64,000 nt of DNA. Origin: Candidatus Omnitrophota bacterium. GTDB taxonomy: Bacteria > Omnitrophota > Gorgyraeia > Tantalellales > Tantalellaceae. Every line of letters begins with the position of its first letter. The stretch's first letter is position 1. Location: assembly GCA_015231405.1 (NCBI GenBank), contig JADGBR010000013.1:7222-71221 (forward strand), in the 5' to 3' direction. The position numbers and the translations under genes are program-made. This document shows positions 29,061 through 47,902 of this stretch, one piece after another. The notes under the pieces were generated by a model, which was given only the letters and a program-made list of their open reading frames with translations, was not told where the DNA came from and ran no database searches.

Positions 29061-29061
29061 G

Positions 29062-30438: not shown

Positions 30439-31187
30439 TTATGGAACTACTGAAAAAAATATTATCCAGGATAAACCCTTTTGGCTTGTATGAAACATAT
30501 CGGGGCGAAAGGTATAAGGAGATGGCCGCTACGGACCCCAAGGGCCCTGAATGGCTGTACAGGGCGTTCTTTCCAGGGGATATCATCCCGGGCCGGGAGG
30601 CGCATATCCTGGATATCGGGTGCGCCGGGGGTCGAATCACCGCTTTTTTCGCCCAGGACCGGCCGAATGTCATAGGAATGGACCTGAAACCGGACGTTGG
30701 GTGGAAAAGGGCGGCTAAAGCGCGTTTTATCCTGGCCGATTCCGAAGCAATACCGTTCGGGAACTGCACTTTTGACATATGTTCCTTGATACAGGTATTG
30801 GAGTATGTGGACGGCGACAGGGCGGCGCTCTCCGAAATTTACAGGGTACTTAAACCCGGCGGCAGGCTGGTGCTGCAAGCCGCAAACAGGGACGGCATAT
30901 ATTCGCTCATCACGGGAAAAAAGATAGATGCAAGGCACAGGCATTGGTACACAAGAGACGGTATAACCACGATACTTATTGAGGCGGGGTTCAGGGTGCT
31001 GTCGGTCAAAGGGTTCGGCGCGAGGATACCGGTCATCTCGAGGCTTATCTTCATGGCGAGGCCGTACCCTTATCCCGAACTTTATCCTGACCTTTTTCTC
31101 TCGAAGCTGGTCCCGGAGAAGAACAGGCCGTTCTTCAATATTGTCTGCGAAAAATTGTCCGGTACGCGTTCCGGGAGGCAGGCATGA
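30435..31187 (+). CDS. class I SAM-dependent methyltransferase
   Basis: ILDIGCAGGRITAFF motif I; VLKPGGRLVL post II. Confidence 0.75.
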   Translation: MIMELLKKILSRINPFGLYETYRGERYKEMAATDPKGPEWLYRAFFPGDIIPGREAHILDIGCAGGRITAFFAQDRPNVIGMDLKPDVGWKRAAKARFILADSEAIPFGNCTFDICSLIQVLEYVDGDRAALSEIYRVLKPGGRLVLQAANRDGIYSLITGKKIDARHRHWYTRDGITTILIEAGFRVLSVKGFGARIPVISRLIFMARPYPYPELYPDLFLSKLVPEKNRPFFNIVCEKLSGTRSGRQA

Positions 31188-32179
31188 ACGACATGAGAGG
31201 GATGATCTGCCTCGATTGCGGAGGTGCGCTGCAACCCGGCGGGAAGGACAGCGGGGTCATATGCGCTTCATGCGGCAAAAATTATCAAGTCCGGGAAGGG
31301 ATCCCGTTCATCCCGGGAAAGAAAGATCTTTCGGGATATGATACCGGGATCGCCGGCGAGAATGCCCGCATCTATGATTCGTTGGCCGACCTCGGAACTC
31401 AGGTAAAAGGCGTCAACCTGCTTTTATCGGAATACTATACCGACAGGATCAGGGATATACATATCGAACTTCTATCGCCGTCGCTTTCACCTTCGGCGAA
31501 AGTGCTGGAGGCCGGATGCGGGCTGGGAAAGATTTCCAGGGCGCTCACCGGCATCACGGCCGGGTACCACGGGTTCGACATCTCTTACGCCAGCGTGAAA
31601 AAAGCCAGGGACATATGCATGCCGGGAAACTCCAGGTTCTTTGTTGGCAATGTCCTGGCGATACCGTTCCCCGAGGGGTATTTCGACGCCGTGGTCAGCT
31701 CCGAGATGCTGGAGCATGTCCCCGCCGATAAAGCGGCCATCGCCGAGATGAAAAGGGTGCTGAAGCCGAAAGGCCTTTTGAGCGTTTCCGTGCCGAATTC
31801 CATGATGGCTTTTTATCCGCTGGAATTCTTTTCCATGGTTAGGCATTACGGCCTTAAAAAATTCCGAAACCTTATCAGAAGGGAACTTGACTGGGCCGCG
31901 GACGAGGCATATGACAGGCCTTATATGCCGGGGCAGTTCAGAAAGCTATTCACCGAAGAGGGCTTGTCGATAGCGGCTCACAGGACGGCGCTGTGTTATC
32001 TGTGGCGAAGGCCTTATTCCGACGTTATCGAATGGCTTGAAAAAAAGAAGTGGTTCGACCCCGCGGGGTTCGTCGAAAGGTATTTTCGAGTTGACTCTTT
32101 CATGACAGGAAACAGGCTGCCGGTTTTGGGAATGATGGGGACCAGACAGTTCATACTCGCTCGTAAGGATAGATCATGA
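31184..32179 (+). CDS. class I SAM-dependent methyltransferase with N-terminal Trm112-like zinc ribbon
   Basis: CLDCGG...CASCG Cys4 ribbon then VLEAGCGLGKISRAL and VLKPKGLLSVSVPN. Confidence 0.7.
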   Translation: MNDMRGMICLDCGGALQPGGKDSGVICASCGKNYQVREGIPFIPGKKDLSGYDTGIAGENARIYDSLADLGTQVKGVNLLLSEYYTDRIRDIHIELLSPSLSPSAKVLEAGCGLGKISRALTGITAGYHGFDISYASVKKARDICMPGNSRFFVGNVLAIPFPEGYFDAVVSSEMLEHVPADKAAIAEMKRVLKPKGLLSVSVPNSMMAFYPLEFFSMVRHYGLKKFRNLIRRELDWAADEAYDRPYMPGQFRKLFTEEGLSIAAHRTALCYLWRRPYSDVIEWLEKKKWFDPAGFVERYFRVDSFMTGNRLPVLGMMGTRQFILARKDRS

Positions 32180-34143: not shown

Positions 34144-35630
34144 TAAAGGACGTAAAAGATTTTTTCTGCAATTACATGTTCCAGATCGCCGGGTTCGCCG
34201 CGCGGGTGATCATCGGCGCGGCCACGTTATGGCTCCTGACGAATGTTCTGGGCCCCGGTGGATACGGAACTTATACCGTTTTCCTTATGGTCGTTTCGGT
34301 CGGGCTCGCTTTCACGTCTAACTTTACTCACGCCGCGGTAGATATTACCGGCAGGGACGAATATATACGGGCGGGGCATATACGCGGGACATTCTGGGCG
34401 GAATCCGCGCTTTTAGGGGTACTTCTCACCGGGATATGCATAGCGGGGTATTTTTACAGGGATGTTCTATCCGGGTACATAGGTATCGTGCCTGGCATGT
34501 GCGGTCTGGTCCTTTTGTACCTTATCGTTTCGGCGCTTGCCCAGTTCCTTCAGGATTGTTTCCAGATAACGAGCAGGATGAGGAAATTCGCGCTCGTGCC
34601 TCTTTCCGTGCCGGCGGTCTTTGCGGCGCTCCTGGCATGGTCATATCTTTCGGGACGGGGATTGAACGTGGAACTGGCGATAACTTTCGGGGTGATAGCG
34701 GCGGTGGCAGGGATGGCCGCCGGGCTCCTGTTCCTTGACAAGGAACTGATATGGCCGGCTGTTTTCGATCCCGGGAAGGCGGGGGAGCTGATCCTTTTAT
34801 CCCTGCCGTTCGTTTTTTCCGGGGTGGCGGGCTATGTGTTTGATTGGGTGGACCTTGTGGTGATAAAACGGTTCCTGACAAGCGCGGATGTCGGTATATA
34901 CGCCCTCGCTTACCAGATGACGGCTTTCCTGATAATTTTCACTAGGCTCACCACGAACCTCAATGTTTCGATAATAACGAACTGGAAGATACAAGGCAGG
35001 GACGATCTCGTCAGGTTCTTTGTGGAAAGGACGGTGCCGCAGGTAACGTTCGTTTTTTCGCTTGTTCTGGTCGTGTGCATGACGCTGGCGGGTGCCATCT
35101 TTAAGATATTCAGGCCGGAGTATTTGCCGGGCGTTCCGGTATTCGTTATCCTTATTTCCAGCGTATGCTTCAGGAACCTGCACGCGTTACAGGCTCCGGT
35201 GCTGACCGCGTACAGGATAATAGTACCGTGCTCGGTGGTGAGCGTTTTAGCGGTCCTCGTCAATTTCGCAGCGGATATGGCGATGGTCCCGGTGATCGGA
35301 ATAATCGGTCCGGCCATAGCGACGTTCCTGGCGGTGCTTTTTTCCGCCCTTTTCCAGACATTGTTCATAGACCGTCGTTTGGGGACGAATTCGGCGTCGC
35401 ATTACTTATGTTCGGCCCCGGCGCTGGCCGCTTTGCCGGTATGCTTTTTCCCGGGCATTCCCCAGGCTGTCAGGCTTGTTCTGGGGGCGCTGATAATAGT
35501 TATATCCGTTATGGCCGCGAGGCGGGCCGCTCTTCTGAAGAGTTCAGATATGGAACTGTATAATTCTATGGACCTCCCCGGGTTCATATCCTCGGGGTTG
35601 GGTAAGATAAGCAGGGTGTTGATAGCATGA
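34140..35630 (+). CDS. wzx: Wzx-type oligosaccharide flippase (MOP superfamily)
   Basis: 12-14 TM helices, N-terminal LLTNVLGPGGYGTYTVFLMV signature of polysaccharide biosynthesis flippases. Confidence 0.7.
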   Translation: MIKDVKDFFCNYMFQIAGFAARVIIGAATLWLLTNVLGPGGYGTYTVFLMVVSVGLAFTSNFTHAAVDITGRDEYIRAGHIRGTFWAESALLGVLLTGICIAGYFYRDVLSGYIGIVPGMCGLVLLYLIVSALAQFLQDCFQITSRMRKFALVPLSVPAVFAALLAWSYLSGRGLNVELAITFGVIAAVAGMAAGLLFLDKELIWPAVFDPGKAGELILLSLPFVFSGVAGYVFDWVDLVVIKRFLTSADVGIYALAYQMTAFLIIFTRLTTNLNVSIITNWKIQGRDDLVRFFVERTVPQVTFVFSLVLVVCMTLAGAIFKIFRPEYLPGVPVFVILISSVCFRNLHALQAPVLTAYRIIVPCSVVSVLAVLVNFAADMAMVPVIGIIGPAIATFLAVLFSALFQTLFIDRRLGTNSASHYLCSAPALAALPVCFFPGIPQAVRLVLGALIIVISVMAARRAALLKSSDMELYNSMDLPGFISSGLGKISRVLIA

Positions 35631-37198
35631 TCACTAAAAGGTCCGGCAGGAAAAAAGTCATTCTCGTAAAACCACATTACGCGCATAAATGGGATTACAG
35701 GGACAGGGACCCTGACGTCCAGGTTCCCACGGGGCTCCTGTACGTCGGAACGACGCTTAAGGCCAACGGGTACGATGTGAAGATAATCGACGCTACGGCA
35801 GATAAAGACTATAAGCGGACGGCGGTCGCAAATCTCGACGGCGCGGTCTATGTGGGTATAACCGCGATGACCGCGCAGCTTGCATCGGCTATAGATATCG
35901 CCGGCGAGATAAGGAAAGCGGATCCCGAAGTCCCTCTGGTGTGGGGCGGTAACCACCCGTCGCTTTATCCCGAACAGACATGCCTCGACGAACTCTGCGA
36001 CATAGCGGTAATTGGCGAGGGGGACATGACAGCCGTCGAGCTGGCGGGCGCTTTAGAGGCTGACGGGGATCCCCGGGGCGTGAAAGGGATCTGTTTCCGG
36101 AGGGGAGGGGAAGTGGTCACTACCGGCGGGAGGGGGCTGGTGGATGTCGAAGCCCTTCCGGAACCGGATTACGGCCTTCTCGGCGATGTCGAGAAATACA
36201 TATGGGGGTATTTCCCGGCGTACAGCGATAAACCTTACAGGTTCCTGCCGGTACACGCCGGCAGGGGATGTTTTTACAGATGCAGTTTCTGCATGGAGAA
36301 CGTCGAGAAAAAACACAGGTCCCGGACCGCGAGGCAGATAGCCGATCAGATAAAACGTCTAATGGAGAAATACCGGATAGAGGCCATAACTACGATAGAC
36401 TCCGATTTCTACGCGGACAAAAAACGGGTCAAGGAATTCGTCGACATCGTAATTAACGAGCGTATCGGGATCAAGTGGATGGGGAACTCGCGCGCTAATT
36501 ATTTCAGGGATGATTATATCGACCGGGAATTCGCCGAAAAACTAGAGATCTCGGGCTGTTTCAGGGCCGGACTGGGTGTCGAGACGGGGTCGACAAGGAT
36601 CCTGGAGTATATCCGTAAGGACATAACCCATGATCAGGTCAGGCGTGCGGTAGATGTCCTGAACACCACGGGAATAATCGTCGCCTGTTCGTTCATGATA
36701 GGGATCCCGGGTGAGACCAAGGATGATATGGTTGCGACTTTCAGGTTCATACGCGAACTCTACAAGAAGGCAAAAAAGATCTATATCATCGGCCCGGCCG
36801 AATACAGGCCTTATCCGGGATGCGACCTTTTCGAGGAAGCGACAAAACAGGGGCTTCTTGTTCCGGACAGCCTCAGGGGATGGGGCGAAGCCATGAATTC
36901 GTTCTGGGGCTATCTCGGTTCCGAGAGGTTCCCGTGGGTGGAAGACCACAGGTTCATCAAGTATGCGACAACGGTGATCCCGTTCCTCTACACCACAAAT
37001 TGTGTGCCTAAGCGCCGGGCCGTATGGCCGCTGTATCTCATTGTCCGAGCCATCGTAGAGGTCCGGGTCAGGTTCGACCTCTGGGGCATACTTTTTGAGG
37101 ACAGGCTGATACTGAAAGCGGCCTCTATCTGGCAGGCGGCGAAGCCTGTTCCCGGTAAGATAAAGGAGATCATATGGAAGAGACCTTTTTGTCGATAG
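35627..37198 (+). CDS. B12-binding domain radical SAM protein
   Basis: N-terminal cobalamin-binding Rossmann-like region, CFYRCSFC radical SAM cluster. Confidence 0.75.
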   Translation: MITKRSGRKKVILVKPHYAHKWDYRDRDPDVQVPTGLLYVGTTLKANGYDVKIIDATADKDYKRTAVANLDGAVYVGITAMTAQLASAIDIAGEIRKADPEVPLVWGGNHPSLYPEQTCLDELCDIAVIGEGDMTAVELAGALEADGDPRGVKGICFRRGGEVVTTGGRGLVDVEALPEPDYGLLGDVEKYIWGYFPAYSDKPYRFLPVHAGRGCFYRCSFCMENVEKKHRSRTARQIADQIKRLMEKYRIEAITTIDSDFYADKKRVKEFVDIVINERIGIKWMGNSRANYFRDDYIDREFAEKLEISGCFRAGLGVETGSTRILEYIRKDITHDQVRRAVDVLNTTGIIVACSFMIGIPGETKDDMVATFRFIRELYKKAKKIYIIGPAEYRPYPGCDLFEEATKQGLLVPDSLRGWGEAMNSFWGYLGSERFPWVEDHRFIKYATTVIPFLYTTNCVPKRRAVWPLYLIVRAIVEVRVRFDLWGILFEDRLILKAASIWQAAKPVPGKIKEIIWKRPFCR

Positions 37199-37905
37199 TG
37201 ATACCGGCGTACAACGAGTCTCACAGGATAGCAAAAAGCCTGGAGGAGATAATCGAATACCTCGAAAAGAAGATATTCTCCAGCGAGATAATAGTCGTTG
37301 ACGACGGCAGTACCGACGATACCGTGAGGATCGTAGAGGAAAAGTTCCGGGGGAACAACGTGAGGGTCATCCGGAACGGACGGAACCGAGGCAAAGGCTA
37401 TACTGTGAGGAACGGGATGCTGGCGGCAAAGGGTAAGTATATACTCTTCGCGGACGCGGATAACGCCACCCCCATAAATGAGCTTAACAGGCTTCTCCGG
37501 GAGCTTGAAGAGGAAGACATCGATTTCGTCTATGGCATAAGGCTTATACGCCGCGAAGGCGGGTTCTTGAAGAACCTGATCCGGAAATTTATCGGCAGAG
37601 GTTTTCTGTTCCTTGCGCATGCGATAGTTCTCAGGGAGTTCGTTTATGACACGCAGTGCGGGTTCAAATGTTTCAGGCGGGAAGCCGCCCGGAAAATATT
37701 CGAAAGGGCTCTCATAGAAAGCGGGGTGTTCGACGTGGAGATATTCTTTCTGGCCGAGAAACTCGCTCTAAAAGGGACGCCTGTCCCGGTGCACTGGAGG
37801 CATATGCCGGGATCAACAATAAACATCTACAAATGTATTATCGGCGACCCGTTCTCCATGATGCGGATCAAAATGAACGATATGACGGGGAAATATGAAA
37901 GGTAA
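37174..37905 (+). CDS. GT2 polyprenyl-phosphate glycosyltransferase (ArnC/Dpm1-like)
   Basis: LSIVIPAYNES..IIVVDDGSTDDT, DAD motif FADADNATP. Confidence 0.75.
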   Translation: MEETFLSIVIPAYNESHRIAKSLEEIIEYLEKKIFSSEIIVVDDGSTDDTVRIVEEKFRGNNVRVIRNGRNRGKGYTVRNGMLAAKGKYILFADADNATPINELNRLLRELEEEDIDFVYGIRLIRREGGFLKNLIRKFIGRGFLFLAHAIVLREFVYDTQCGFKCFRREAARKIFERALIESGVFDVEIFFLAEKLALKGTPVPVHWRHMPGSTINIYKCIIGDPFSMMRIKMNDMTGKYER

Positions 37906-38980
37906 AGTTTATTCGATAGGCATGATAGGGTGCGGCGTTCACGCTCGCACGCGGCTTTTACCGGCGCTTAAATATTGCCGTAAAGCCAGGATCGCGGCCC
38001 TTGCCGACCCGGCGAGGGACCTTTCGGCAGAAAGGGCTGTCTGGGGCGGTCCGAAGACATACTCGGATCACAGGGCTATGCTCGATGACAGGTCTATTTC
38101 GCTGGACGCGGTGATCGTAGCCACTCCTCCGGATTCGCACAGGGAGATAGCGACCTTCTGCATGGGGAAAGGCAAACATGTCCTTCTAGAGAAACCTGTG
38201 GCGCTTACGCTCCGGGACGCGCGGGCGCTGGTCGAGGCCAGGGACCGTACGGGGGTAAAGGTGATGGTGGGCCACCAGAGAAGGTTCAGCCCCATGGATA
38301 ACAGCGTCAGGGACCTTTACGGGAAAGGGCTGATAGGCAAGACCGTCGCGATAAACGCGGTACATGAGTTCTCTTCGGATTCAAGAGGGGCGGCGACGGG
38401 ATACCTGAAAAAGAGGGAGCTCTCCGGAGGCGTGATCATGGAATATGCCTGCCACGACATCGATTTCTTCAGGTATCTTCTCGGGGCCGAGGCGGTCGAG
38501 GTGTACGCGAGGGTGAGCTCGACGCATGCGGACGACGACACCGCGGCCCTGGTCGTTACCTTTTCGAACGGGGTCATAGCGAATCTGACGCTTTCGAGCT
38601 GTACGGTGGACGAGGAACATCTCGAGATCTTCGGGACCGAAGGAATAATAAGGAGCGACAGGTACAGGACCGTAAAGGCGGAAATAGACCTTATTAAAGG
38701 GCTTAAGGACAGGAAAATGCGCGCGTTAAAGACTTTCGCGAGGGGTTTCAAAAGCCTTATGCTCTTGAAATACGCCTTCAAGCGGAATATCCTGGCCGCG
38801 TATATTTCCGAGATAGGCCATTTTATCGATTCGATCGAGGAAGGGAAAGACCCGGTCCCCGGGCTCGAGGACGGCATAAAGGCCATGGAAGCGGCTGACG
38901 CGGCGATAAGGTCCGGAATATCGGGAAAACCCGTCAGGGTATGCGGACCGGAAGAGTGTAAGGGGGGGGCGAATGACTGA
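37895..38980 (+). CDS. Gfo/Idh/MocA family oxidoreductase
   Basis: IGMIGCGVHARTRLLPAL, EKPVALTLRDA. Confidence 0.75.
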   Translation: MKGKVYSIGMIGCGVHARTRLLPALKYCRKARIAALADPARDLSAERAVWGGPKTYSDHRAMLDDRSISLDAVIVATPPDSHREIATFCMGKGKHVLLEKPVALTLRDARALVEARDRTGVKVMVGHQRRFSPMDNSVRDLYGKGLIGKTVAINAVHEFSSDSRGAATGYLKKRELSGGVIMEYACHDIDFFRYLLGAEAVEVYARVSSTHADDDTAALVVTFSNGVIANLTLSSCTVDEEHLEIFGTEGIIRSDRYRTVKAEIDLIKGLKDRKMRALKTFARGFKSLMLLKYAFKRNILAAYISEIGHFIDSIEEGKDPVPGLEDGIKAMEAADAAIRSGISGKPVRVCGPEECKGGAND

Positions 38981-39668
38981 ATGGGAAGATCTGCATAACG
39001 CGAATTCGTCCTGGAGGAAAACCCTCGTGGGCCAGATATCGGATCTATATACCGTTCCGAAATATCTGGGACTGTTCAGGGAATATTTCGGCAGGGAAAA
39101 AGGCCTTGATACGCTGGAGCTGGGCGCCGGCAACGGCGACCTCAGCATGCGGCTTGTTTCGGAGAACAAAGGAGGTATTATAGGCAGTTATACGGTGTCC
39201 GAGAATTATGAGGAAGGGGTCAGGAACCTCAGGGCCCGGGGGATGGAGGCGAAACTTATCAACGCGGAAAATACGGGTCTCGGGCCAGGCTCTTACGACC
39301 TCGTGTGCGCGTTTGACATAATGCACCATGTGAAAGACCCTCGCGCGATGGCTCGGGAAATGGCGAGGATCAGCAGGAAATACATTTTCCTCACCGAGGC
39401 TAATGGTCTCAGCCTCGGGAGAAAGCTCTTTGAGCGTAAAAAGATGTACCGGGACGCCGGCGAAAGGTCGTACCTGCCGCGGGTGTACAGGTCGTTCTTC
39501 GACGCCGGGGTTTTCAAGGAACTCGGGATCGAGCCGTTCCTTTTCGTATTCAAGACGCCTGAAAGGTTCATAAAACACGTCATAGCGTTCAGCGAAGCGA
39601 TCGAGAAGATACCGGTCCTCCGATGGCAGTGCGCGTCGCTGGTGATCTTCGGGGAGAAAAGAACATGA
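38973..39668 (+). CDS. class I SAM-dependent methyltransferase
   Basis: LELGAGNGDLSMRL motif I; type-11-like. Confidence 0.7.
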   Translation: MTEWEDLHNANSSWRKTLVGQISDLYTVPKYLGLFREYFGREKGLDTLELGAGNGDLSMRLVSENKGGIIGSYTVSENYEEGVRNLRARGMEAKLINAENTGLGPGSYDLVCAFDIMHHVKDPRAMAREMARISRKYIFLTEANGLSLGRKLFERKKMYRDAGERSYLPRVYRSFFDAGVFKELGIEPFLFVFKTPERFIKHVIAFSEAIEKIPVLRWQCASLVIFGEKRT

Positions 39669-40390
39669 AAGCGGTCATACTTGCCGCGGGAAAGGGAGTC
39701 AGGTTGGGAGAGCTGGTGAAGGATAGGCCTAAACCCATGCTGGAGGTGGGAGGTGAACCGGTGTTAAAATATTCCATTGAGGCGCTGGCGGCCCAGGGCA
39801 TACGGGAAATATATATTAACCTGTTCTATCTTGGCGAAGTGATCAGGGACTATTTCGGGGACGGCTCCGGGCTGGGCGTTAAGATCGAATACTCTTCGGA
39901 GAAAACGCTTCTCGGGACCGCGGGCGGCGTAAAAAAGATAGCCGGAGGGTTTAAAGAGCCGTTCATTGTTCTTTACGGGGATTCTTTCCGGACGGTTGAC
40001 CATAAAAAAATGGAGGCTTTACACCGGAAGACGGCGAGCATGGCGACGATAGCGGTATACAGGACGCCGACGCTGGAAAGATGCGGGATCGTGGAATTCG
40101 GGGACGATATGAGGATAACGGGTTTTTTGGAAAAACCGCTGAACTATGCGGGAAAGAGCGGGTATGCTAATGCCGGGGCGTATTGCCTAGACCCGCGGGC
40201 GCTTGAGCTGATCCCTGACGGCGTGGAGTACGATTTTGCCTCCCAGCTTTTTCCGTGTATCCTGTCAAGAGGCGGTAAGCTGTCGGCATTTATACTTGAA
40301 GAGCCGGTGTACGACATAGGAGTGCCTGAAGACCTGGAGAAGATAAGGAGCATGATGGGATCCGTTGGAAAGAAAGGATCTTTGAGATGA
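39665..40390 (+). CDS. sugar-1-phosphate nucleotidyltransferase (HddC-like heptose-1-P guanylyltransferase candidate)
   Basis: MKAVILAAGKGVRLGELVKDRPKPML NTP_transferase signature; context with GmhA/GmhB/GHMP kinase. Confidence 0.75.
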   Translation: MKAVILAAGKGVRLGELVKDRPKPMLEVGGEPVLKYSIEALAAQGIREIYINLFYLGEVIRDYFGDGSGLGVKIEYSSEKTLLGTAGGVKKIAGGFKEPFIVLYGDSFRTVDHKKMEALHRKTASMATIAVYRTPTLERCGIVEFGDDMRITGFLEKPLNYAGKSGYANAGAYCLDPRALELIPDGVEYDFASQLFPCILSRGGKLSAFILEEPVYDIGVPEDLEKIRSMMGSVGKKGSLR

Positions 40391-40995
40391 TAAAAGGATT
40401 TATTTCCCGGCTGGGGGACCATCCCCTGTGGAACTACTACATGCAGATCGCGGCGCATATGGGGGATTTCACATATTCCGACAGGATAAAAACGGCCCTC
40501 GCCCCCGAAAAGGGGGATAAGGTCCTGGACGCGGGTTGCGGGCTGGGGCTGTACAATATGCTTGCCGATTTTTACGTGGGGGTCGACAGCAACAAAGACC
40601 ATCTTGCCTGGGCGCGGAAACGGTTCGTGAAAGGAGAGAATAAATATTTTGTGGCGGGCGACCTCACGGAGGTCGAGTTCTCGTTCAAGGCTTTCGACAG
40701 GGCCATATGCAGCCGGGTGCTGCATCACCTGAGCGACGCGGGATCGGCGGCGCTCATAAAAAAACTGGCCAGGCTGACAAAAAAACGCGTCCTGTTCGTG
40801 GACCGCATACCCCCGGGCGAAAAAGCGACTGCCGGGGAAAAGTTTTTTTTAAAGCTCGAGAAAGGTCATTTCGTTAGGCCGCTCGAGGATACCATCAGGC
40901 TCATAGAGGAAGATTTTATTATAGAGAACGTAAGCAGGTTCATGAACAGGACAAGGACGGGTGAATGCGCCGTTATCCCGGCCGCGCCCAGATAG
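40387..40995 (+). CDS. class I SAM-dependent methyltransferase
   Basis: VLDAGCGLGLY motif I. Confidence 0.7.
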   Translation: MIKGFISRLGDHPLWNYYMQIAAHMGDFTYSDRIKTALAPEKGDKVLDAGCGLGLYNMLADFYVGVDSNKDHLAWARKRFVKGENKYFVAGDLTEVEFSFKAFDRAICSRVLHHLSDAGSAALIKKLARLTKKRVLFVDRIPPGEKATAGEKFFLKLEKGHFVRPLEDTIRLIEEDFIIENVSRFMNRTRTGECAVIPAAPR

Positions 40996-41003
40996 GAGAG
41001 AAA

Positions 41004-41993
41004 ATGATAATAACGCAGACCCCTTTCAGGATAACCCTTGGCGGAGGCGGGACAGATCTCCCGGCTTTTTATTCGAAGCACGGCGGTTTCCTGGTGACAT
41101 CCGCCATCAATAAATACGTTTACATAACAATAAACAGGCGGACCATAGACGATACTATATGGCTCTCATACTCGAAGATAGAGAAAAGGAAAAAGGTCGA
41201 CTCAATAAAACACGAGCTCATCCGCGAGGCCTTGAAAATGACAGGCATAAAGAACGGGATAGAGATACATTCAGTGACGGAGCTTTCCAGCGGGACGGGG
41301 CTCGGCTCATCGGGAAGTTTTACCGTGGGGCTTCTGAACGCTCTTCACACGTTCAAGAGGGAATACGCCCCGCACGCCCAGCTCGCGGAAGAGGCCTCAG
41401 GGATCGAGATAGGCACGCTGGGTAAACCCGTCGGCAAACAGGACCAGTATATCGCGGCGTTCGGAGGCATAATTTCGTTGGAGATTGACCGTAAAGGGGC
41501 CGTGACCGTAAAACCGCTGAATATCCAAGAGGCTGTGATAGAAGAGCTCGAGCGGCGGGTCATGCTGTTCTATACAGGAGTCACAAGGGAGTCCGCCTAT
41601 GTCCTTGCGGACCAGACGAAAGCCTGCGAAAGGGACGACAAAAAAGTGGTCGCTAACATGCGGAGGATCAAAGAGATAGGGTTGCTTTCGAAAAAGGCCC
41701 TGGAGGACGGAGACCTGGACGGGTTTGGCGCGTTATTACACGAGCATTGGGAGGTTAAAAAAGGCATATCGAACAAGGTGAGCTTTACCAAAGCCGACGA
41801 ACTTTACGAGTCTGCCAGGAAGAAAGGCGCTCTCGGCGGCAAGGTGATCGGCGCAGGCGGCGGGGGCTTCCTCATGGTCTTTTCCGGGGATAACCCGGCG
41901 GGATTGAGAGAAAGCCTCAAGACCATGGGGCTTAAAGAGATGAGGTTCCGATTTGATTTCGGCGGGACGAAAGTTATAGCCAATTTCTTTTGA
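41004..41993 (+). CDS. GHMP kinase (HddA-like D-glycero-D-manno-heptose 7-phosphate kinase candidate)
   Basis: TPFRITLGGGGTDLP and SGTGLGSSGSFTVGLL GHMP motifs. Confidence 0.75.
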   Translation: MIITQTPFRITLGGGGTDLPAFYSKHGGFLVTSAINKYVYITINRRTIDDTIWLSYSKIEKRKKVDSIKHELIREALKMTGIKNGIEIHSVTELSSGTGLGSSGSFTVGLLNALHTFKREYAPHAQLAEEASGIEIGTLGKPVGKQDQYIAAFGGIISLEIDRKGAVTVKPLNIQEAVIEELERRVMLFYTGVTRESAYVLADQTKACERDDKKVVANMRRIKEIGLLSKKALEDGDLDGFGALLHEHWEVKKGISNKVSFTKADELYESARKKGALGGKVIGAGGGGFLMVFSGDNPAGLRESLKTMGLKEMRFRFDFGGTKVIANFF

Positions 41994-42020
41994 AGGTCTT
42001 TTACCGGGCAAGGGGGGAAC

Positions 42021-42620
42021 GTGGACAATAAGGCGTACATCGACAACTATTTCGACGAAATGAAAGAGATCATAGAGAGGATCTCTCGGGAGGATATCGC
42101 GAGGTGCATCGAACTTCTCTTTAAGGCATGGTCCGATGGCCGGACAGTTTTCATAATGGGTAACGGCGGGTCGGCTTCCACGGCGACCCACTTCGTTTGC
42201 GACCTTGCGAAATGCACGGCAGTTGAGGGGAAAAAGAGGTTCAGGGTTATAGGGCTTACGGACAACATACCATGGGTGAGCGCTTTAACGAACGATAACG
42301 GGTTCGGGTCGATCTTCGAAGAGCAGCTGAAGAACCTCATGAATGACGGGGATGTGCTTATTGGAATAAGCGTTCACGGCGGAAGCGGTTCGGACAAGGC
42401 CGGGCTCTGGTCGCAGAATCTCATAAGGGCAATGCGCTACGTTAAGTCCCGCGGCGGCGTGAATATAGGTTTCAGCGGGTTCGACGGCGGGGCCATGAAA
42501 CAGGAGGCGGACCTTTCGCTGGTGGTCCCCTTTAATTCCACGCCTCAGGTGGAATCGTTCCACGTGGCGCTCGAGCATCTTATCTGTAACCGCTTGCGCG
42601 AAAGGATACAGGCGTCATGA
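42021..42620 (+). CDS. gmhA: phosphoheptose isomerase (SIS domain)
   Basis: GRTVFIMGNGGSASTATHFVCDL SIS motif; GTG start with RBS aagggggg. Confidence 0.8.
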   Translation: MDNKAYIDNYFDEMKEIIERISREDIARCIELLFKAWSDGRTVFIMGNGGSASTATHFVCDLAKCTAVEGKKRFRVIGLTDNIPWVSALTNDNGFGSIFEEQLKNLMNDGDVLIGISVHGGSGSDKAGLWSQNLIRAMRYVKSRGGVNIGFSGFDGGAMKQEADLSLVVPFNSTPQVESFHVALEHLICNRLRERIQAS

Positions 42621-43204
42621 ATAGAGCCGTATTTCTCGACAGGGACGGGGTGGTCAACCGGCTTGTGTACGACAGGGAACTGATGGATTATGACAGCCCG
42701 GTCAACGCGAGCCAGTTCCGGATCATATCGGGTGTCCCCGAAGCGGTAAAAAAGCTGAATGACGCCGGTTACAAGGTCATAATCGTTTCGAACCAGCCGG
42801 TGATAGCCAAAAGGAAAGCGACCCTGAAAGACCTCGATGGGATCAACGCGCGGATGGAAAGGGAGTTGCGGCGGAAACGCGCATTTTTGGACGATATCCG
42901 GTATTGCTATCATCACCCGGATATGGGAGCCAGGCCTTACAGGAGGAAATGCCGCTGCAGAAAACCCGCGCCGGGCCTAATTACGGGCGCCATGAAGGAA
43001 CACGGGATCGCTAAAAAAGGGTCTTTTCTGGTGGGCGACAATCTTACGGATATACTCGCCGGGAAAAGGGCCGGCGTTGAGACTATACTCATTACCGCGA
43101 TGAAATGCGAGCTGTGCGCTTTGATGGAGAAAATGGGCGCGAGGCCGGGCCATATAGTCAGTGACCTGGGTGAGGCGGTCAGGGTTATATTGAGGGGGGC
43201 ATAG
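42617..43204 (+). CDS. gmhB: D,D-heptose 1,7-bisphosphate phosphatase (HAD-IIIA)
   Basis: FLDRDGVVN HAD motif I, SNQP motif, Cys-rich zinc loop CYHHPD...CRCRKP. Confidence 0.75.
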   Translation: MNRAVFLDRDGVVNRLVYDRELMDYDSPVNASQFRIISGVPEAVKKLNDAGYKVIIVSNQPVIAKRKATLKDLDGINARMERELRRKRAFLDDIRYCYHHPDMGARPYRRKCRCRKPAPGLITGAMKEHGIAKKGSFLVGDNLTDILAGKRAGVETILITAMKCELCALMEKMGARPGHIVSDLGEAVRVILRGA

Positions 43205-43210
43205 GGCAGA

Positions 43211-43273
43211 GCGCATGGCGCATGGGGCATGGTGTAAGTTGTATTACCATGCTCCATGCGCCATGCTCCATGC
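43211..43273. terminator. strong hairpin (21-bp stem, 12-nt loop) after gmhB, built from GCATGG repeats
   Basis: gcgcatggcgcatggggcatggt / accatgctccatgcgccatgc; no U-tract so terminator role is inferred. Confidence 0.4.
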
Positions 43274-43303: not shown

Positions 43304-43984
43304 ATGAGCATGTTTATTGATACAGTTGATGTGAACGAGGTTGAGGAAATATCCGGGTGGGGGGTAGTATCGGGGTGCACGACCAATCCGCTCATTGTCG
43401 CGAACAATGCCTCGATCGGAGGGAAGCTGGACCTCAAAAAGCGTGTCATGTCCATCGTCGACGCTCTTAAAAAACCTGTCAGCGTCGAGCTCCTCTCCGA
43501 GAAGGCCGGCGAGATGGTAGAAGAGGCCAGGAAATACCATTCGTGGAACAGGGAATACATCAATATAAAGGTCCCGTTCAGCGCCGACGGGCTCAAGGTC
43601 ATAAATGTTCTGGAGCGGAAGGAAAATATCAGGACGAACGCCACGTGTATAATGTCTTTCAACCAGGCTCTTTTAGCGGCGCTCGCCGGGGCCACGTATG
43701 TCAGCATATTCGCGGGAAGGATCAGGGATATGGGATATGACCCGGCGCCCGTCATAAGCGATACGGCGGAGTTCATCTCATCGAGAGGGCTTTCGTCGAG
43801 CATTATCGTCGGCAGCGTCAGGCATATCATGGACGTGAACGATGCGTTCAAGGCAGGCGCTCACATAGTCACGGTAACGCCCGATATCCTCAGGAAGATG
43901 CTCCGTAACCCGAGGACGGAAGAGACCATAAAGGAATTCAACGATAAGTTCCATAGCGCGAGAGAAAAAGGCATGATAAGCTGA
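43304..43984 (+). CDS. transaldolase/fructose-6-phosphate aldolase family protein
   Basis: FIDTVDVNEVEE..GCTTNPLIV N-terminus typical of Tal/FSA subfamily. Confidence 0.7.
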   Translation: MSMFIDTVDVNEVEEISGWGVVSGCTTNPLIVANNASIGGKLDLKKRVMSIVDALKKPVSVELLSEKAGEMVEEARKYHSWNREYINIKVPFSADGLKVINVLERKENIRTNATCIMSFNQALLAALAGATYVSIFAGRIRDMGYDPAPVISDTAEFISSRGLSSSIIVGSVRHIMDVNDAFKAGAHIVTVTPDILRKMLRNPRTEETIKEFNDKFHSAREKGMIS

Positions 43985-43985: not shown

Positions 43986-45245
43986 ATGACAAAGAGAACC
44001 ACTCTCATCATTTCGATGATGCTGGGCGCGTTCCTCATGGGAACGGTGTTCATTTTCGCGGTCAAGCCCTATCCGGGAGCGGATTTCGCCGTATACCAGA
44101 GGCTGGGGCATAATATCGCCGCCGGGCGGGGATATTCCCAGGAGATATCGGCGCCTTTCATCCCCGACGGCATGAGGGAGCCGCTTTACCCCATGTTCCT
44201 CGCGGTCGTCTACCGCCTGTTCGGCTTTAATGACGTCGCTGTGTATCTCATTCAGGCTCTTCTATATTCGCTCAGCGCGTTCATCCTTTACCGCGCTTCT
44301 TTGGAGATCGCGGACGAAAGGACATCTATCCTTGCCGGGTTCATATTCGCGCTTTGCCCTTTCACGGCGTATTATTGCGGCATGATATACGCCGAGATAC
44401 TCGCTACCTTTCTACTCGTAACGGTAACGTATCTTCTCACGCGTTATGTAAGAACGGGAGGGGTTTTAGCCCTCGTTATCGCGGGGCTGCTTACGGGATG
44501 TCTCATCCTGACTAAAAGGATGTATGTGTTCTACCCTTTCGCCGTAGCCGGTGCTCTTTTTCTGAGGAGGAGGCCGAATATCCGGCGTAAGGCCCTCGAG
44601 ATCATCGTTATTATTTTCACTATGGCAGCGGTTATGGCCCCATGGGCAATGAGGAATTACGCCACTTTCGGGAGGTTCATCCCGCTTGTCAACGGGTATG
44701 GGCCAGGGGTGTTTTTTTACATATCGACGGTACAGTTCAAGGGAAACCTGACCGGGGTGGGCTATGAAAATAATCCTCTTGTCCTGGAACAGTTCGAGCA
44801 GATGTTCCAGGAAGGAGGGTTCTCCCCTGCCGAAAAAGAGAGTTTCCCTTTTGTGCCGGGCTCGAGCGCCATATGTTTCAAATACGCCATTAAGAACATA
44901 CAGGACGACCCGGCGGATTATGTAGCGGGGCTTATAAAGAAGATCCCGAGGCTTTTTGTGCACGTTTATTCTCCGGGGCATGAACAGGGCCCGGTCTATA
45001 TTACCTCCGCCATCGCCCTCGCGATCTATGCGATAGGCTTATACGGCATTTGGGTTGCAAGGGCCAGTTGGAGAAAAATGGCGTTCTTTCTGCTGCCCAT
45101 AGTGTATCTGTCACTTACGGCCTTATTGACGGTCATGACCTCGAGGTACACCGTTCCGGCCAGGCCTCATCTCATGTTCTTCGCGGCCGCGGCGCTGATG
45201 TCGGCGTTAAACAGGAGGCGTGGTCCTTTTGAAAAAAAACTCTGA
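43986..45245 (+). CDS. GT-C fold membrane glycosyltransferase (ArnT/PMT_2-like)
   Basis: Multi-TM, N-terminal periplasmic-loop pattern ..GRGYS...REPLYPMFLAVVY..LLYSLSAFILY typical of family 39/83. Confidence 0.6.
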   Translation: MTKRTTLIISMMLGAFLMGTVFIFAVKPYPGADFAVYQRLGHNIAAGRGYSQEISAPFIPDGMREPLYPMFLAVVYRLFGFNDVAVYLIQALLYSLSAFILYRASLEIADERTSILAGFIFALCPFTAYYCGMIYAEILATFLLVTVTYLLTRYVRTGGVLALVIAGLLTGCLILTKRMYVFYPFAVAGALFLRRRPNIRRKALEIIVIIFTMAAVMAPWAMRNYATFGRFIPLVNGYGPGVFFYISTVQFKGNLTGVGYENNPLVLEQFEQMFQEGGFSPAEKESFPFVPGSSAICFKYAIKNIQDDPADYVAGLIKKIPRLFVHVYSPGHEQGPVYITSAIALAIYAIGLYGIWVARASWRKMAFFLLPIVYLSLTALLTVMTSRYTVPARPHLMFFAAAALMSALNRRRGPFEKKL

Positions 45246-46575
45246 AACGGGCCTTACGGTGTTTGTCGCCTCCGGGTGCCTCATCGGCGCGCTTTACTTC
45301 AGGTCGCCCGTAACGTTCGCCATGGCGCTCGTAACGGGCATAATATCGTGGGCGATAACGAAGTTGCCGTATGAACCGCGCGAAAAAACTTTTCTTGTGA
45401 GGATCTTCGCAGTTTCGGTACTGTCGAGGCTGGCAATATGTCTTTTAATATATTTCGAGTCGATACTCCGGGGCGGCGAGGGGAGTGTGTTCGACGATGA
45501 CGTCCTGTGGCCGCGCGCGGCGTGGATACTCTTCCGGTCATGGACCGGAGGACAGGCTTTCGCCGCCTGGAACGCCGGGAACGACCCCGCCCTTAATTCC
45601 GGCGAGTATTACTTAAGGTGTATCGCCGCACTTTATTCCGTTTTCGGATATTACTCTCCGCTTATCGCCAAATATTTCAATATAATCCAGGGATCGCTGG
45701 TCGCTCTCATGGTTTACGGCATAGCAAGGACGGTTTCAGGCCGTCCCGTAGCGCGGCTCAGCGCCGTTCTTACGGCGTTCCACCCGTCCCTGGTACTCTG
45801 GTCGGTCGTATCGCTCAAGGATATGAGCTGTATTTTTCTTTTGCTCCTTTCGGTATGGCTGTTCTACCGGTATCTTAACGGCGGGAAGAGATGGTCCGTC
45901 GCTTTTCCGCTCATACCGTTAGCCGCGCTTTTTACCGTAAGGCCGTTCATTGCCGTTATCGGCGCGTCGGCTTTAGCGACGGCTTATCTCGTTTCCCTGG
46001 AACGTCCGGTTAAGATCGCCGCGGCCGTTCTGGGAGGATACATTGTTCTTTTACTGGCATTAATGCCGGGGCCCGGAGTTAAAACGGCCGTGGAACGGGG
46101 TATGCAGGATGTAAATATGTCGAAGCTGCTCAGATATCATCGGGAGTATGTAAGGACGGGAGGAAATATTTACAGGATATTGCCCGCCGGATCATATCGC
46201 GTCAACACAGTTGAGTTCGGGTTCCCGGAGATCCTGATCGTTGAGGCAAAAGGGGTCTTTTATCTCCTCTCCGTGCCTTTCCCCTGGGCAGCCATGAACT
46301 GGTTCCAGCTGATCTCATCGCCACAGATGTTATGGTGGTACCTGGTCCTTTTCTTCTCAATAGCCGGTGTTTGTTCGATATCCGGGGATAGGTTCAGGCT
46401 GTTCTCCCCGATAATATTGGTTGGCGCCTCTCTTATTCTCGCGATGGCCATTTTCGAGGGGAATATCGGAACTGCCGCCAGGCACAGGGACGTGATAACG
46501 CCTTACGTTATTTTATTCGCTTCAATAGGCATGGTGAATTTTTTATACGGTCATGGGAAAAATATTACGGGATAA
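45220..46575 (+). CDS. polytopic membrane protein, tandem paralog A (GT-C/polymerase candidate)
   Basis: Shares GGEGSVFDDDV.WPR..W, ..SLKD.SCIF.. and EGNIGT..RHRD..TPY blocks with next ORF. Confidence 0.5.
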   Translation: MVLLKKNSETGLTVFVASGCLIGALYFRSPVTFAMALVTGIISWAITKLPYEPREKTFLVRIFAVSVLSRLAICLLIYFESILRGGEGSVFDDDVLWPRAAWILFRSWTGGQAFAAWNAGNDPALNSGEYYLRCIAALYSVFGYYSPLIAKYFNIIQGSLVALMVYGIARTVSGRPVARLSAVLTAFHPSLVLWSVVSLKDMSCIFLLLLSVWLFYRYLNGGKRWSVAFPLIPLAALFTVRPFIAVIGASALATAYLVSLERPVKIAAAVLGGYIVLLLALMPGPGVKTAVERGMQDVNMSKLLRYHREYVRTGGNIYRILPAGSYRVNTVEFGFPEILIVEAKGVFYLLSVPFPWAAMNWFQLISSPQMLWWYLVLFFSIAGVCSISGDRFRLFSPIILVGASLILAMAIFEGNIGTAARHRDVITPYVILFASIGMVNFLYGHGKNITG

Positions 46576-47902
46576 CACATTAAAAGTACCGGTAATGGCC
46601 GGGATGCTGGCGGGGTTATTGCTCTTTTTCTCGCCGTCCGCGTTCCTTTTACTTTCGGCCGCGGCTGTCGCGCTTGTAATTTTGGCAAGGATGGACATCC
46701 CTTTAAAGGAAAAACAATTCGTTACATATCTATTTCTGGCCGTATTGTTCATAAGGATGTTCTTGTCGGCTTCGGTCTACTCATTCATGCTGACCAAAGG
46801 AGGGGAAGGCAGCGTTTTCGACGACGATGTGGGATGGCCGCGTCTCGGGTGGGCGCTCTACGGGACTGTGACCGGGGAAGTGGATTATACGAAGCTCAAG
46901 AACTGCGAAATGCTCTCGGTCAACGAGCAGCGGCTTAAAGAAGGGTACCTTATCCTCATCGCTTCAGCTTACGGCGTCATAAGAAGTTATTCCCCGCTTT
47001 CGGCGAAATACATCAATGTCTTTCTTGGCGCGCTCAGCGTGGTCTTTTTATATGGCCTTGCGAGGAGGATGCTCGGCGAGAGAACGGCAAAATATACCGC
47101 GGTATGCGCGGCGTTTTTTCCGTCCATGACATTCTGGTCAATTGTGTCGCTCAAGGACACTTCATGCATTTTCGCGATCGTTCTTTTGTTCTGGTGCGTC
47201 GACAGGTACGCCAGGGAAAAGGTCTGGAAAGCGTTCTTTATCGCTCCTCTTCCGCTCATATTCCTCTTTACCATAAGGAAACAGCTGATGTATCTGGTTT
47301 TGTTTTCCGTGCTGACATCATGTTTTGTGAACCTGAGAATGAGATATAAAGTTGCCTGGCTTATCGCAGGACTCGTGGCGGCGGTCCTCTTTCTGCCGGC
47401 ACCCGTCAAGGCCAAAGCCTGGGGGTTCATTGAGGGGCAGATATCGCCCCGGGCTTGTTGGGTCGCGCAGAAAGGTTTTGTCGATTCCGGAGGCAATACG
47501 TACCGGATATTTCCGGATAAGTATTATGAATTCCTTTACCCGGGACCTATCGAGACCCTGGAAACGGCAAAAGCTTTATTCAAAGGCCTTTGGTACTTCC
47601 TGCTGGCGCCTTTCCCATGGGCGGTATGCAATAAGAGCCAGCTGGCAATAATGCCGCAGATGATGTTATGGTACCTCATGCTTCCCCTTGCGCTAAAGGG
47701 CATCATATTCGTGATGAGGACAAGGTTCAAAAGAAGCGTGATTGTTATATCTTTTGTCGGGGCAATGACGCTGTTCCTCGCCATGAGGGAAGGCAATATC
47801 GGGACGCTCGTCCGGCACAGGGACCAGATGACGCCGTATATTATAATGTTCGCCGCGGCAGGGTTCATAAAGCTCGGCACACGTTCCGGTGACGAGCTAT
47901 GA
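46553..47902 (+). CDS. polytopic membrane protein, tandem paralog B
   Basis: Paralog of 45220-46575 (same conserved blocks, same length). Confidence 0.5.
   Translation: MGKILRDNTLKVPVMAGMLAGLLLFFSPSAFLLLSAAAVALVILARMDIPLKEKQFVTYLFLAVLFIRMFLSASVYSFMLTKGGEGSVFDDDVGWPRLGWALYGTVTGEVDYTKLKNCEMLSVNEQRLKEGYLILIASAYGVIRSYSPLSAKYINVFLGALSVVFLYGLARRMLGERTAKYTAVCAAFFPSMTFWSIVSLKDTSCIFAIVLLFWCVDRYAREKVWKAFFIAPLPLIFLFTIRKQLMYLVLFSVLTSCFVNLRMRYKVAWLIAGLVAAVLFLPAPVKAKAWGFIEGQISPRACWVAQKGFVDSGGNTYRIFPDKYYEFLYPGPIETLETAKALFKGLWYFLLAPFPWAVCNKSQLAIMPQMMLWYLMLPLALKGIIFVMRTRFKRSVIVISFVGAMTLFLAMREGNIGTLVRHRDQMTPYIIMFAAAGFIKLGTRSGDEL

Follow-up and report, generated by a model that had tools for sequence, protein, structure and literature searches.

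A putative transaldolase-linked paralogue of the GDP-heptose pathway in a glycan locus of an Omnitrophota bacterium

A 64,000-nucleotide stretch of a Candidatus Omnitrophota metagenome-assembled genome (hereafter the window; contig JADGBR010000013.1, positions 7,222 to 71,221) carries one long glycan locus on its + strand, from about 21.5 kb to 58.2 kb. Within it lies a cassette of six open reading frames (ORFs) that a preliminary description had read as the four-step GDP-heptose pathway interleaved with methyltransferases. Comparison with related loci and characterised pathways indicates that these six ORFs, together with a short transaldolase, a Gfo/Idh/MocA oxidoreductase and a small family 2 glycosyltransferase (GT2), probably constitute one module, a transaldolase-linked paralogue of the GDP-heptose pathway. 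The cassette is better described in these terms, and its closest characterised counterpart is the octose module of lincosamide biosynthesis.

The cassette and its operon

Family assignments are Pfam and NCBIfam profile matches; bit scores are quoted against NCBIfam equivalog cut-offs, and the closest solved structures were taken from the Protein Data Bank (PDB). All six ORFs named in the preliminary description are present on the + strand at the coordinates given here, each with a Pfam family match. The cassette encodes a class I S-adenosylmethionine (SAM) methyltransferase, MT_a (231 aa, 38973-39668; Methyltransf_11/23/25 at 31-33 bits, Methyltransf_11 at 33), a sugar-1-phosphate nucleotidyltransferase (241 aa, 39665-40390; NTP_transferase, E = 3e-34) and a second class I SAM methyltransferase, MT_b (202 aa, 40387-40995; Methyltransf_25, 48 bits). 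These are followed by an HddA/WcbL-like GHMP anomeric sugar-phosphate kinase (329 aa, 41004-41993; GHMP_kinases_N and _C), a variant SIS-domain ketose/aldose phosphate isomerase that is GmhA-like and non-canonical (199 aa, GTG start, 42021-42620; SIS_2) and a GmhB-like HAD-IIIA sugar-bisphosphate phosphatase (195 aa, 42617-43204; HAD-IIIA hydrolase). The nucleotidyltransferase is taken to start at the ATG at 39665, which has a good Shine-Dalgarno sequence; its Pfam match begins at residue 16 of the longer ORF that opens at 39623.

Several neighbours were absent from the preliminary description. Upstream are the small soluble GT2 (243 aa, 37174-37905, +; Glycos_transf_2, E = 7e-34, no transmembrane segment), a candidate polyprenyl-phosphate sugar synthase, and the NAD(P)-dependent Gfo/Idh/MocA oxidoreductase (37895-38980, +; GFO_IDH_MocA N- and C-terminal domains), a candidate for sugar-nucleotide tailoring in the role class of LmbZ/CcbZ. 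Downstream are the short-type transaldolase (226 aa, 43304-43984, +, NCBI start 43310; TAL_FSA, E = 4e-41) and three genes for PMT_2 membrane glycosyltransferases of the GT-C type.

Profile matches to the cassette ORFs have E-values of 1e-11 to 1e-47, which excludes chance ORFs. The junctions between the cassette genes are 4- or 8-nt overlaps of the ATGA type or short spacers with a Shine-Dalgarno sequence, and the genes thus form one translationally coupled + strand operon. The oxidoreductase gene overlaps the start of MT_a by 8 nt at its stop end, and the first GT-C gene begins 1 nt past the transaldolase stop codon. The GC content of the cassette equals that of its flanks. A recent horizontal transfer was considered and rejected given this uniform composition.

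The gene set is conserved across many phyla

Kinase relatives with 44-60% identity came up at 80 loci in a genome scan, spread over Acidobacteriota, Actinomycetota, Chloroflexota, Dormibacterota, Polyangiaceae, Spirochaetales, candidate phyla radiation (CPR) bacteria and a Woesearchaeote. The nucleotidyltransferase, kinase, SIS, HAD and transaldolase genes occur together in a Dehalococcoidia locus, L003, and in the two loci nearest to the window, L001 and L002 (60-62% kinase identity). Forty-nine genome loci extend for 6 kb or more on each side of the kinase. The nucleotidyltransferase is present in 44 of these, the SIS isomerase in 41, the HAD phosphatase in 35 and a transaldolase, counted within 10 kb, in 31; all five genes occur in 25. 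For a gene found once or twice per genome, such linkage of the transaldolase is expected by chance at an estimated 1-2% or less, and the transaldolase-linked loci are scattered across the whole kinase tree.

When every ORF lying within 8 kb of the kinase at 83 loci was clustered without bias, the highest ranks went to the kinase (83 loci), nucleotidyltransferase (72), SIS isomerase (55), a short-chain dehydrogenase/reductase (SDR) epimerase (53), the transaldolase (48) and the HAD phosphatase (41). Lower in the ranking are GT2s, two class I methyltransferase families (19 and 16 loci), the Gfo/Idh/MocA oxidoreductase (17) and a nucleotide-sugar dehydrogenase (7). Neither a transketolase nor a ribose-5-phosphate isomerase is among these recurrent neighbours.

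The association also emerges from the transaldolase side. Proteins of the window-type transaldolase subfamily are 55-67% identical to the window protein, and the contexts of four members on long contigs (L084, L085, L086 and L087) were compared. The Aureabacteria locus L086 has the full set: GT2, SDR, nucleotidyltransferase, kinase, adh_short, Gfo/Idh/MocA, SIS, HAD, transaldolase, PMT, PMT_2, B12-binding radical SAM and GT87. L084 and L087 carry a GT2, a methyltransferase, adh_short, Gfo/Idh/MocA, HAD, transaldolase, a further GT2 and PMT_2, and in L085 the transaldolase is followed by a methyltransferase-GT2 fusion. In three of the four contigs, HAD, Gfo/Idh/MocA, GT2, methyltransferase and PMT_2 genes accompany the transaldolase, and in none of the four does a pentose-phosphate gene adjoin it.

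The Dehalococcoidia locus L003 (GCA_030649945.1, 6579-13753) encodes the cassette along with a canonical-type GmhA, a more HddA-like kinase and an Fcl-like SDR. Its cassette SIS protein scores 80 bits against the gmhA models, compared with 206 and 190 bits for the canonical-type GmhA, and its cassette kinase scores 160 bits against HddA, compared with 251 bits for the second kinase. With its two isomerases and two kinases, the locus speaks for a cassette pathway that is paralogous to the canonical one and not redundant with it. It has only one phosphatase and one nucleotidyltransferase, which suggests that the last two enzymes are common to two sugar phosphates.

Some related loci show gene fusions. 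L067 encodes a 391-aa SIS-HAD fusion protein (11688-12863). In the high-GC locus L013, SDR and HAD share one reading frame (6917-8512), as do transaldolase and methyltransferase (8472-10004); these are either fusions or overlapping genes.

A true transaldolase accompanies the cassette

The window transaldolase scores 180 bits against TIGR00875, short of its cut-off of 246, and 144 bits against Bacillus subtilis Tal (3r8r). Its FIDTV, TTNP, SVELLS, INIKVP, TNAT, SIFAGR and GSVRH segments align with the transaldolases of B. subtilis and Thermotoga maritima, and it keeps the Asp, the TTNP motif, the Glu, the Schiff-base Lys, N-x-T, Phe-x-Gly-Arg and S-x-R. A fructose-6-phosphate aldolase (FSA) reading was rejected, since the protein has the Glu and Phe typical of transaldolases where FSA has Gln and Tyr. 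All cassette transaldolases retain the Asp, Glu, Lys and Phe expected of a true transaldolase. At NCBI the window protein is 100% identical to an Omnitrophica protein named 'transaldolase', and the Polyangiaceae members are named 'transaldolase family protein'.

Compared with the B. subtilis and T. maritima enzymes, members of the window-type subfamily share a constant set of sequence changes, for example NVT-L-I-F replaced by N.T-C-.-M and AAS.RH by.GS.RH. The cassette transaldolases belong to two short-transaldolase families; one is the window type, TIGR00875-like with scores below the cut-off, and the other, of the TIGR02134 type, scores above its own.

The isomerase is a variant of GmhA

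The best PDB relatives of the SIS protein are GmhAs, at 88 bits, and its homologues are likewise 199 aa long. We take the catalytic and metal-binding tetrad of Escherichia coli GmhA to be H61, E65, Q172 and H180, with residue roles from the GmhA structures. The window protein has His-Asp-Glu-His in place of His-Glu-Gln-His, an exchange of Glu65 for Asp and of Gln172 for Glu that leaves both His residues intact. Its phosphate loop reads SVHGGSGSDKAGLWSQN, compared with STSGK-SPN in GmhA, contains a 9-aa insertion and does not match the short S-T-S-G-x-S loop.

The Asp/Glu signature is common to every aligned cassette SIS protein, drawn from 55 SIS-bearing loci. The phosphate-loop insertion measures 6-10 residues in the aligned proteins, except in L088 and L090, which have none. 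A second type of cassette SIS protein scores at most 42 bits against any solved GmhA. By its residues and loop, the cassette isomerase is predicted to be something other than a canonical GmhA. A precedent for such an enzyme is HygP of hygromycin B biosynthesis, a GmhA-family sedoheptulose-7-phosphate isomerase that gives a non-manno heptose (PMC10948575). The hygromycin B pathway, unlike the cassette, uses HldE, which gives a beta anomer and an ADP-sugar, and lacks a transaldolase.

Kinase, phosphatase and nucleotidyltransferase

All four core proteins fall far below the NCBIfam equivalog cut-offs, with 160 of 600 bits for HddA, 93 of 209 for gmhA, 129 of 178 for GmhB (PRK08942) and 109 of 300 for HddC. 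HddA is nonetheless the top NCBIfam model for the kinase, and its closest PDB relatives are the heptose-7-phosphate kinases WcbL (148 bits), Campylobacter jejuni 4n3o (138 bits) and Bacteroides thetaiotaomicron 3k85 (137 bits). Fucokinase, galactokinase and mevalonate kinase structures reach at most 55 bits (fucokinase 55, galactokinase 45). The preliminary description had named a galactokinase affiliation as grounds against its own reading; the kinase groups with the HddA/WcbL heptokinases and not with galactokinase. The identical (100%) 329-aa Omnitrophica protein at NCBI is labelled 'galactokinase', and JGI labels the relatives hddA.

The phosphatase matches PRK08942 GmhB best, and a histidinol-phosphatase domain model scores above its own cut-off. 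Its PDB match to E. coli GmhB (3l8e) reaches 82 bits, and the GmhB hallmarks align and are kept, namely the DRDG of motif I (FLDRDGVV) and the zinc loop C-x-H...C-x-C (YCYHH...KCRCRKP).

The nucleotidyltransferase, previously called HddC-like, is no closer to HddC than to several other families. Its NCBIfam ranking is Arch_glmU (131 bits), mannose-1-phosphate guanylyltransferase (130), MurU (118) and HddC (109), all below cut-off. Its top PDB match is the UDP-glucose pyrophosphorylase 8x7s (126 bits), and Yersinia HddC (5xhw) reaches 80 bits. It is not an RmlA either. The nucleotidyltransferases of other cassettes give the same pattern of scores and are not specifically HddC-like. With HddC in fourth place and a UDP-glucose pyrophosphorylase as the top structure, GDP is at most a candidate for the activating nucleotide. 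The earlier four-step GDP-heptose assignment therefore stands in its enzyme classes and in the grouping of the kinase, and fails to find support in the equivalog scores, in HddC specificity and in the isomerase residues.

Comparison with characterised sugar pathways

The lincosamide GDP-octose module consists of the transaldolase LmbR, the isomerase LmbN, the kinase LmbP, the phosphatase LmbK, the guanylyltransferase LmbO and the oxidoreductase LmbZ (PMC4351081). It is the only characterised pathway with the full cassette set, including the transaldolase and the Gfo/Idh/MocA-type oxidoreductase. The corresponding Ccb proteins have lengths near those of the cassette proteins (CcbR 222 aa, CcbN 202, CcbP 323, CcbK 185 and CcbO 232).

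In 2015, the closest homologues of the Ccb enzymes outside lincosamide clusters were reported from Solibacter usitatus for CcbK (49%), Sorangium cellulosum for CcbN (a 'sugar phosphatase', 39%), Sorangium for CcbP (37%), Acidobacterium capsulatum for CcbO (38%), uncultured Acidobacteria for CcbZ (40%) and Cellulomonas for CcbR (a short transaldolase, 47%) (PMC4351081 S1). The lineages of these best matches are the cassette-bearing lineages of our genome scan, and a Sorangium 'sugar phosphatase' homologous to CcbN fits the SIS-HAD fusion in L067. The window module differs from the lincosamide one in that it lies in a polysaccharide locus, not an antibiotic cluster, and has no carrier-protein fusion.

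A search of plasmids found a complete cassette on plasmid 3 of Lawsonia intracellularis (L089, NC_008014.1, 2334-10685). The gene order is SIS, HAD-IIIA, transaldolase, membrane protein, nucleotide-sugar dehydrogenase, SDR, Gfo/Idh/MocA, 'galactokinase' and nucleotidyltransferase, and the 'galactokinase' is 46% identical to the window kinase. The last five genes, from the dehydrogenase to the nucleotidyltransferase, follow the lmb order L-M-Z-P-O. Enzymes of the LmbL, LmbM and LmbS types occur in relatives, as an epimerase and a DegT protein in L001 and L002 and as a dehydrogenase and an SDR in Lawsonia. Two Streptomyces plasmid matches were considered as lincosamide clusters and rejected; they are distant relatives in natural-product-like clusters.

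The four enzyme classes and the logical order of their steps agree with the canonical GDP-heptose pathway; the window kinase is nearest to the heptokinases of that pathway, and the phosphatase has the GmhB zinc loop. The window cassette adds to this a conserved transaldolase, a Gfo/Idh/MocA oxidoreductase, methyltransferases, a small GT2 and GT-C partners. The heptose loci of Burkholderia pseudomallei, Yersinia pseudotuberculosis and Aneurinibacillus thermoaerophilus lack a transaldolase, to our knowledge. The canonical route from sedoheptulose-7-phosphate uses four enzymes, and a review of 23 C. jejuni serotypes makes no mention of a transaldolase (PMC10680097). A literature search gave nothing relevant on a transaldolase with hddA, gmhA or an octose in polysaccharide clusters.

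The cluster had also been likened to the loci for heavily modified heptoses of Campylobacter capsules, an analogy that did not hold up. The C. jejuni tailoring enzymes for GDP-heptose comprise a C4-dehydrogenase, a 4,6-dehydratase, C3/C5 epimerases and C4 reductases (PMC10680097). When the cluster's large + strand ORFs were scanned against Pfam, none matched the C3/C5 epimerase family, and the only two SDRs in these scans (at 21492 and 57252) are 16-17 kb and 14 kb from the cassette. The AsnB homologue that had contributed to the analogy is nearest to an XrtA/PEP-CTERM amidotransferase (578 bits, cut-off 817). A family 4 glycosyltransferase (GT4) resembles the PEP-CTERM-system glycosyltransferase TIGR03088. 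With these two genes, at 50306-52204 and 56088-57242, the distal part of the locus resembles exosortase-type exopolysaccharide loci.

Proposed pathway and carbon number of the product

We propose a route in which every substrate and product is predicted. The transaldolase would transfer a dihydroxyacetone unit from fructose-6-phosphate (or sedoheptulose-7-phosphate) to an aldose phosphate, giving a C7 or C8 ketose omega-phosphate. By homology, the variant SIS isomerase would convert the ketose to an aldose omega-phosphate, the HddA-like GHMP kinase would phosphorylate O-1 to give an alpha-1,omega-bisphosphate, and the GmhB-like phosphatase would take off the omega-phosphate to leave an aldose-1-phosphate. 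The nucleotidyltransferase would then form a nucleoside diphosphate (NDP)-sugar, with GDP assumed only by analogy with HddC and LmbO. The Gfo/Idh/MocA oxidoreductase and the two class I methyltransferases may tailor this sugar. Finally, and on balance we favour this step, the soluble GT2 would load the sugar onto polyprenyl phosphate for transfer by the three GT-C enzymes to an acceptor beyond the membrane.

Carbon number would be set by the acceptor of the transaldolase. Erythrose-4-phosphate would lead through sedoheptulose-7-phosphate to a heptose, and ribose-5-phosphate through octulose-8-phosphate to an octose. An octose is suggested by the conservation of the transaldolase in lineages that generally have a normal pentose-phosphate pathway, by a variant isomerase that coexists with canonical genes and by the lincosamide precedent with its shared gene order; we regard it as a tentative assignment that falls only a little short of an even chance. 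We know of eight-carbon aldoses so far only in lincosamides. A 6,8-dehydration requires a three-carbon exocyclic chain. This reaction on GDP-octose is reportedly carried out by LmbL together with CcbZ (Wang et al., PNAS 2020).

We further speculate, with somewhat more doubt than confidence, that the lincosamide sugar module has its polysaccharide counterpart, and possibly its evolutionary origin, in the cassette, and that a methylated NDP-alpha-octose passes to polyprenyl phosphate and from there to the GT-C enzymes.

Several observations weigh against the proposed pathway. No LmbL-, LmbM- or LmbS-like gene adjoins the window cassette, and the placement of the Lmb/Ccb enzymes in the cassette family, drawn from the 2015 best-hit table and gene order, is by analogy. 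The cassette transaldolases belong to ordinary short-transaldolase families, one of which passes the TIGR02134 cut-off, and this fits a generic role in the supply of sedoheptulose-7-phosphate. The loci with the full set but no transaldolase within 10 kb form one Acidobacteria clade, in which seven loci keep the nucleotidyltransferase, SIS and HAD genes. Nothing conserved replaces the transaldolase in that clade, and the two ORFs that follow the phosphatase gene in one member (L071) have no Pfam family and no relative in other loci; the isomerase substrate may thus be a central metabolite such as sedoheptulose-7-phosphate. On the transfer side, the scores of the GT2 stay far short of all polyprenyl-phosphate synthase cut-offs, and the analysis identified no dedicated small flippase.

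Co-transcription of the transaldolase with the cassette is likewise uncertain, given the 99-nt spacer between the phosphatase and transaldolase genes and the very strong hairpin that it holds. This GCATGGN-heptad hairpin (43213-43272, +) has a 22-bp uninterrupted stem, a predicted energy of -52.8 kcal/mol (z = -7.2) and no U tract. In L001 and L002, unlike the window, the phosphatase and transaldolase genes overlap each other. The GCATGGN motif is enriched in the window, with a one-armed half copy at 17467-17493 in another intergenic region, and the hairpin may be a repetitive extragenic palindromic (REP)-like element or one for RNA processing or stability.

A heptose product, canonical or epimeric, is suggested by the best named matches, all of which are heptose enzymes, by the clade without a transaldolase and by the ordinary transaldolase families; its chance is somewhat less than even. 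The narrower possibility that the cassette makes exactly GDP-heptose, as first described, with the transaldolase a housekeeping or bystander gene, is unlikely. It draws on the best named matches of the kinase, SIS and HAD proteins and the hddA label of the kinase relatives, on the transaldolase-less clade, on a window transaldolase that has every catalytic residue of ordinary transaldolases and on the strong hairpin that separates the two genes. Against it stand the linkage of a transaldolase in 31 of 49 loci from many phyla and the recovery of the same cassette by the transaldolase-anchored search. The four proteins far below their equivalog cut-offs, a nucleotidyltransferase for which HddC is not the top model, the two changed catalytic or metal residues and the loop insertion of the isomerase, and the canonical-type GmhA and HddA-like genes beside the cassette versions in L003 also speak against it, as does the silence of the C. 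jejuni heptose review on any transaldolase (PMC10680097).

The module could be real and its product something other than a surface glycan, for instance the sugar of a small secreted metabolite of the lincosamide or aminoglycoside kind. The only characterised homologous module with a transaldolase does serve antibiotic biosynthesis, and the Streptomyces plasmids hold distant relatives in natural-product-like clusters. The window module, however, lies amid about 38 kb of glycosyltransferases, a Wzx-like flippase and GT-C enzymes, and no nonribosomal peptide synthetase, polyketide synthase, resistance or regulator gene of an antibiotic cluster was seen in the window, which makes this very improbable. 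Equally hard to credit is a mutase-independent route to an ordinary NDP-hexose (fructose-6-phosphate to hexose-6-phosphate, hexose-1,6-bisphosphate and hexose-1-phosphate, with the transaldolase supplying fructose-6-phosphate), whose chemistry formally equals that of the heptose pathway and which would suit a nucleotidyltransferase as near to mannose-1-phosphate guanylyltransferases and UDP-glucose pyrophosphorylase as to HddC, but which is too roundabout for a common sugar when fructose-6-phosphate is never limiting and the kinase, SIS and HAD proteins group with heptose, not hexose, enzymes.

Tailoring and transfer genes

The Gfo/Idh/MocA oxidoreductase has generic PDB relatives only, and its counterparts in related cassettes are 23-39% identical to it. 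At 17 related loci, and on the Lawsonia plasmid, a Gfo/Idh/MocA gene adjoins that of the kinase.

The class I methyltransferases at 38973 and 40387 are real genes, as are the two further ones of the preliminary description, at 30414/30435-31187 and 31184-32179. MT_a has no NCBIfam match and marginal PDB matches (UbiG and EvdMO1), and no clear orthologue was found in the related loci. MT_b has generic PDB matches only and is 32-33% identical to the methyltransferase that follows the nucleotidyltransferase in L001 and L002; no orthologue was found in related loci outside these two. Two class I families recur (in 19 and 16 loci), which makes methyltransferases inside the cassette a family trait. 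The methylation predicted earlier is plausible on this account; the matches of MT_a and MT_b are generic class I ones that point to no particular acceptor.

A B12-binding radical SAM enzyme (35627-37198, +; B12-binding and Radical_SAM domains) has a possible tailoring role. The NCBIfam models that come nearest, each of them below cut-off, are those for BchE, HpnJ and PhpK-type methyltransferases. Such enzymes lie inside or beside the cassette in L001, L002, L086 and L087 and are only 24-29% identical to the window enzyme, whose link to the cassette we infer. These enzymes and the three radical SAM genes of the + strand locus suggest further tailoring. In L001 (8548-13005) and L002 (8569-13006), a radical SAM gene is directly 5' of the kinase gene and a B12-radical SAM gene lies between SIS and HAD, and an epimerase and a DegT aminotransferase are encoded upstream of the nucleotidyltransferase. 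These genes suggest an aminated, possibly C-methylated version of the sugar.

The nearest NCBIfam models of the GT2 are AglJ, ArnC, PpgS and dolichyl-phosphate hexose transferases, at 46-66 bits against cut-offs of 325-529. The protein shares 50% identity with the L004 GT2, and 11 related loci encode small GT2s of a similar kind. A GT2 gene adjoins the cassette in L001, L002, L084, L086 and L087, and PMT_2 genes flank the cassette in the same five loci. The three PMT_2 genes of the window are tandem + strand paralogues at 43986-45245 (E = 5e-15, about 8 transmembrane segments), 45220-46575 (E = 6e-07, about 9) and 46553-47902 (E = 6e-08, about 10). A small GT2 and polytopic PMT_2 GT-C enzymes encoded beside the cassette recall the systems that combine a polyprenyl-phosphate sugar synthase with a GT-C enzyme, such as ArnC/ArnT, PpgS/Rv3779, DPM1/PMT and GtrB/GtrV. 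The window differs from such systems in its three tandem GT-C paralogues and in a GT2 below the equivalog cut-offs.

Other features of the window

Upstream of the cassette and inside the glycan locus, two radical SAM/SPASM enzymes (25003-26040 and 29020-30438) are nearest to tungsten-cofactor and 'metalloenzyme' maturases, far below cut-off. Two large proteins of the locus match no Pfam or NCBIfam family, one of 478 aa with about five transmembrane segments (23570-25006) and one of 655 aa with a single segment (32176-34143). The latter was considered as the counterpart of a 658-aa protein in a similar place in L001, and this was rejected, the two being unrelated in sequence.

A convergent operon on the minus strand (58559-63913) encodes a 619-aa fusion of a CMP-type cytidylyltransferase and a class III aminotransferase, a Gfo/Idh/MocA oxidoreductase, a B12-binding radical SAM protein and a DegT-family aminotransferase. 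From these genes it would appear to be a separate route to a CMP-activated amino sugar. The + strand ORF that overlaps it (58245-59438) has no Pfam match and is probably spurious. Elsewhere in the window, a 2001-aa ORF on the minus strand (8801-14806) has as its sole recognisable part a SNF2-related helicase domain at about residues 1091-1348.

Implications

Automated annotation disperses the cassette under the names 'galactokinase', 'hddA', 'SIS domain protein' and 'transaldolase' and files it under the GDP-heptose or the pentose-phosphate pathway. The comparison points instead to a coherent module, conserved in many phyla and paralogous to the textbook heptose pathway, in which a variant isomerase is joined by the module's own transaldolase. 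If its product is ordinary GDP-heptose, the recurrent transaldolase paralogue would be explained as a dedicated precursor-supply enzyme. The copy on Lawsonia plasmid 3 places the cassette in an organism that can be grown in cell culture, a practical test organism.

If the product is an octose, eight-carbon aldoses would be a widespread and overlooked component of cell envelopes, carried by Acidobacteriota, Actinomycetota, Chloroflexota, Myxococcota, Omnitrophota, CPR bacteria, DPANN archaea and the pig pathogen Lawsonia intracellularis. Either an octose or a non-manno heptose would represent a new class of envelope sugar in lineages that are for the most part uncultured, and it would become possible to test where the lincosamide sugar pathway came from.

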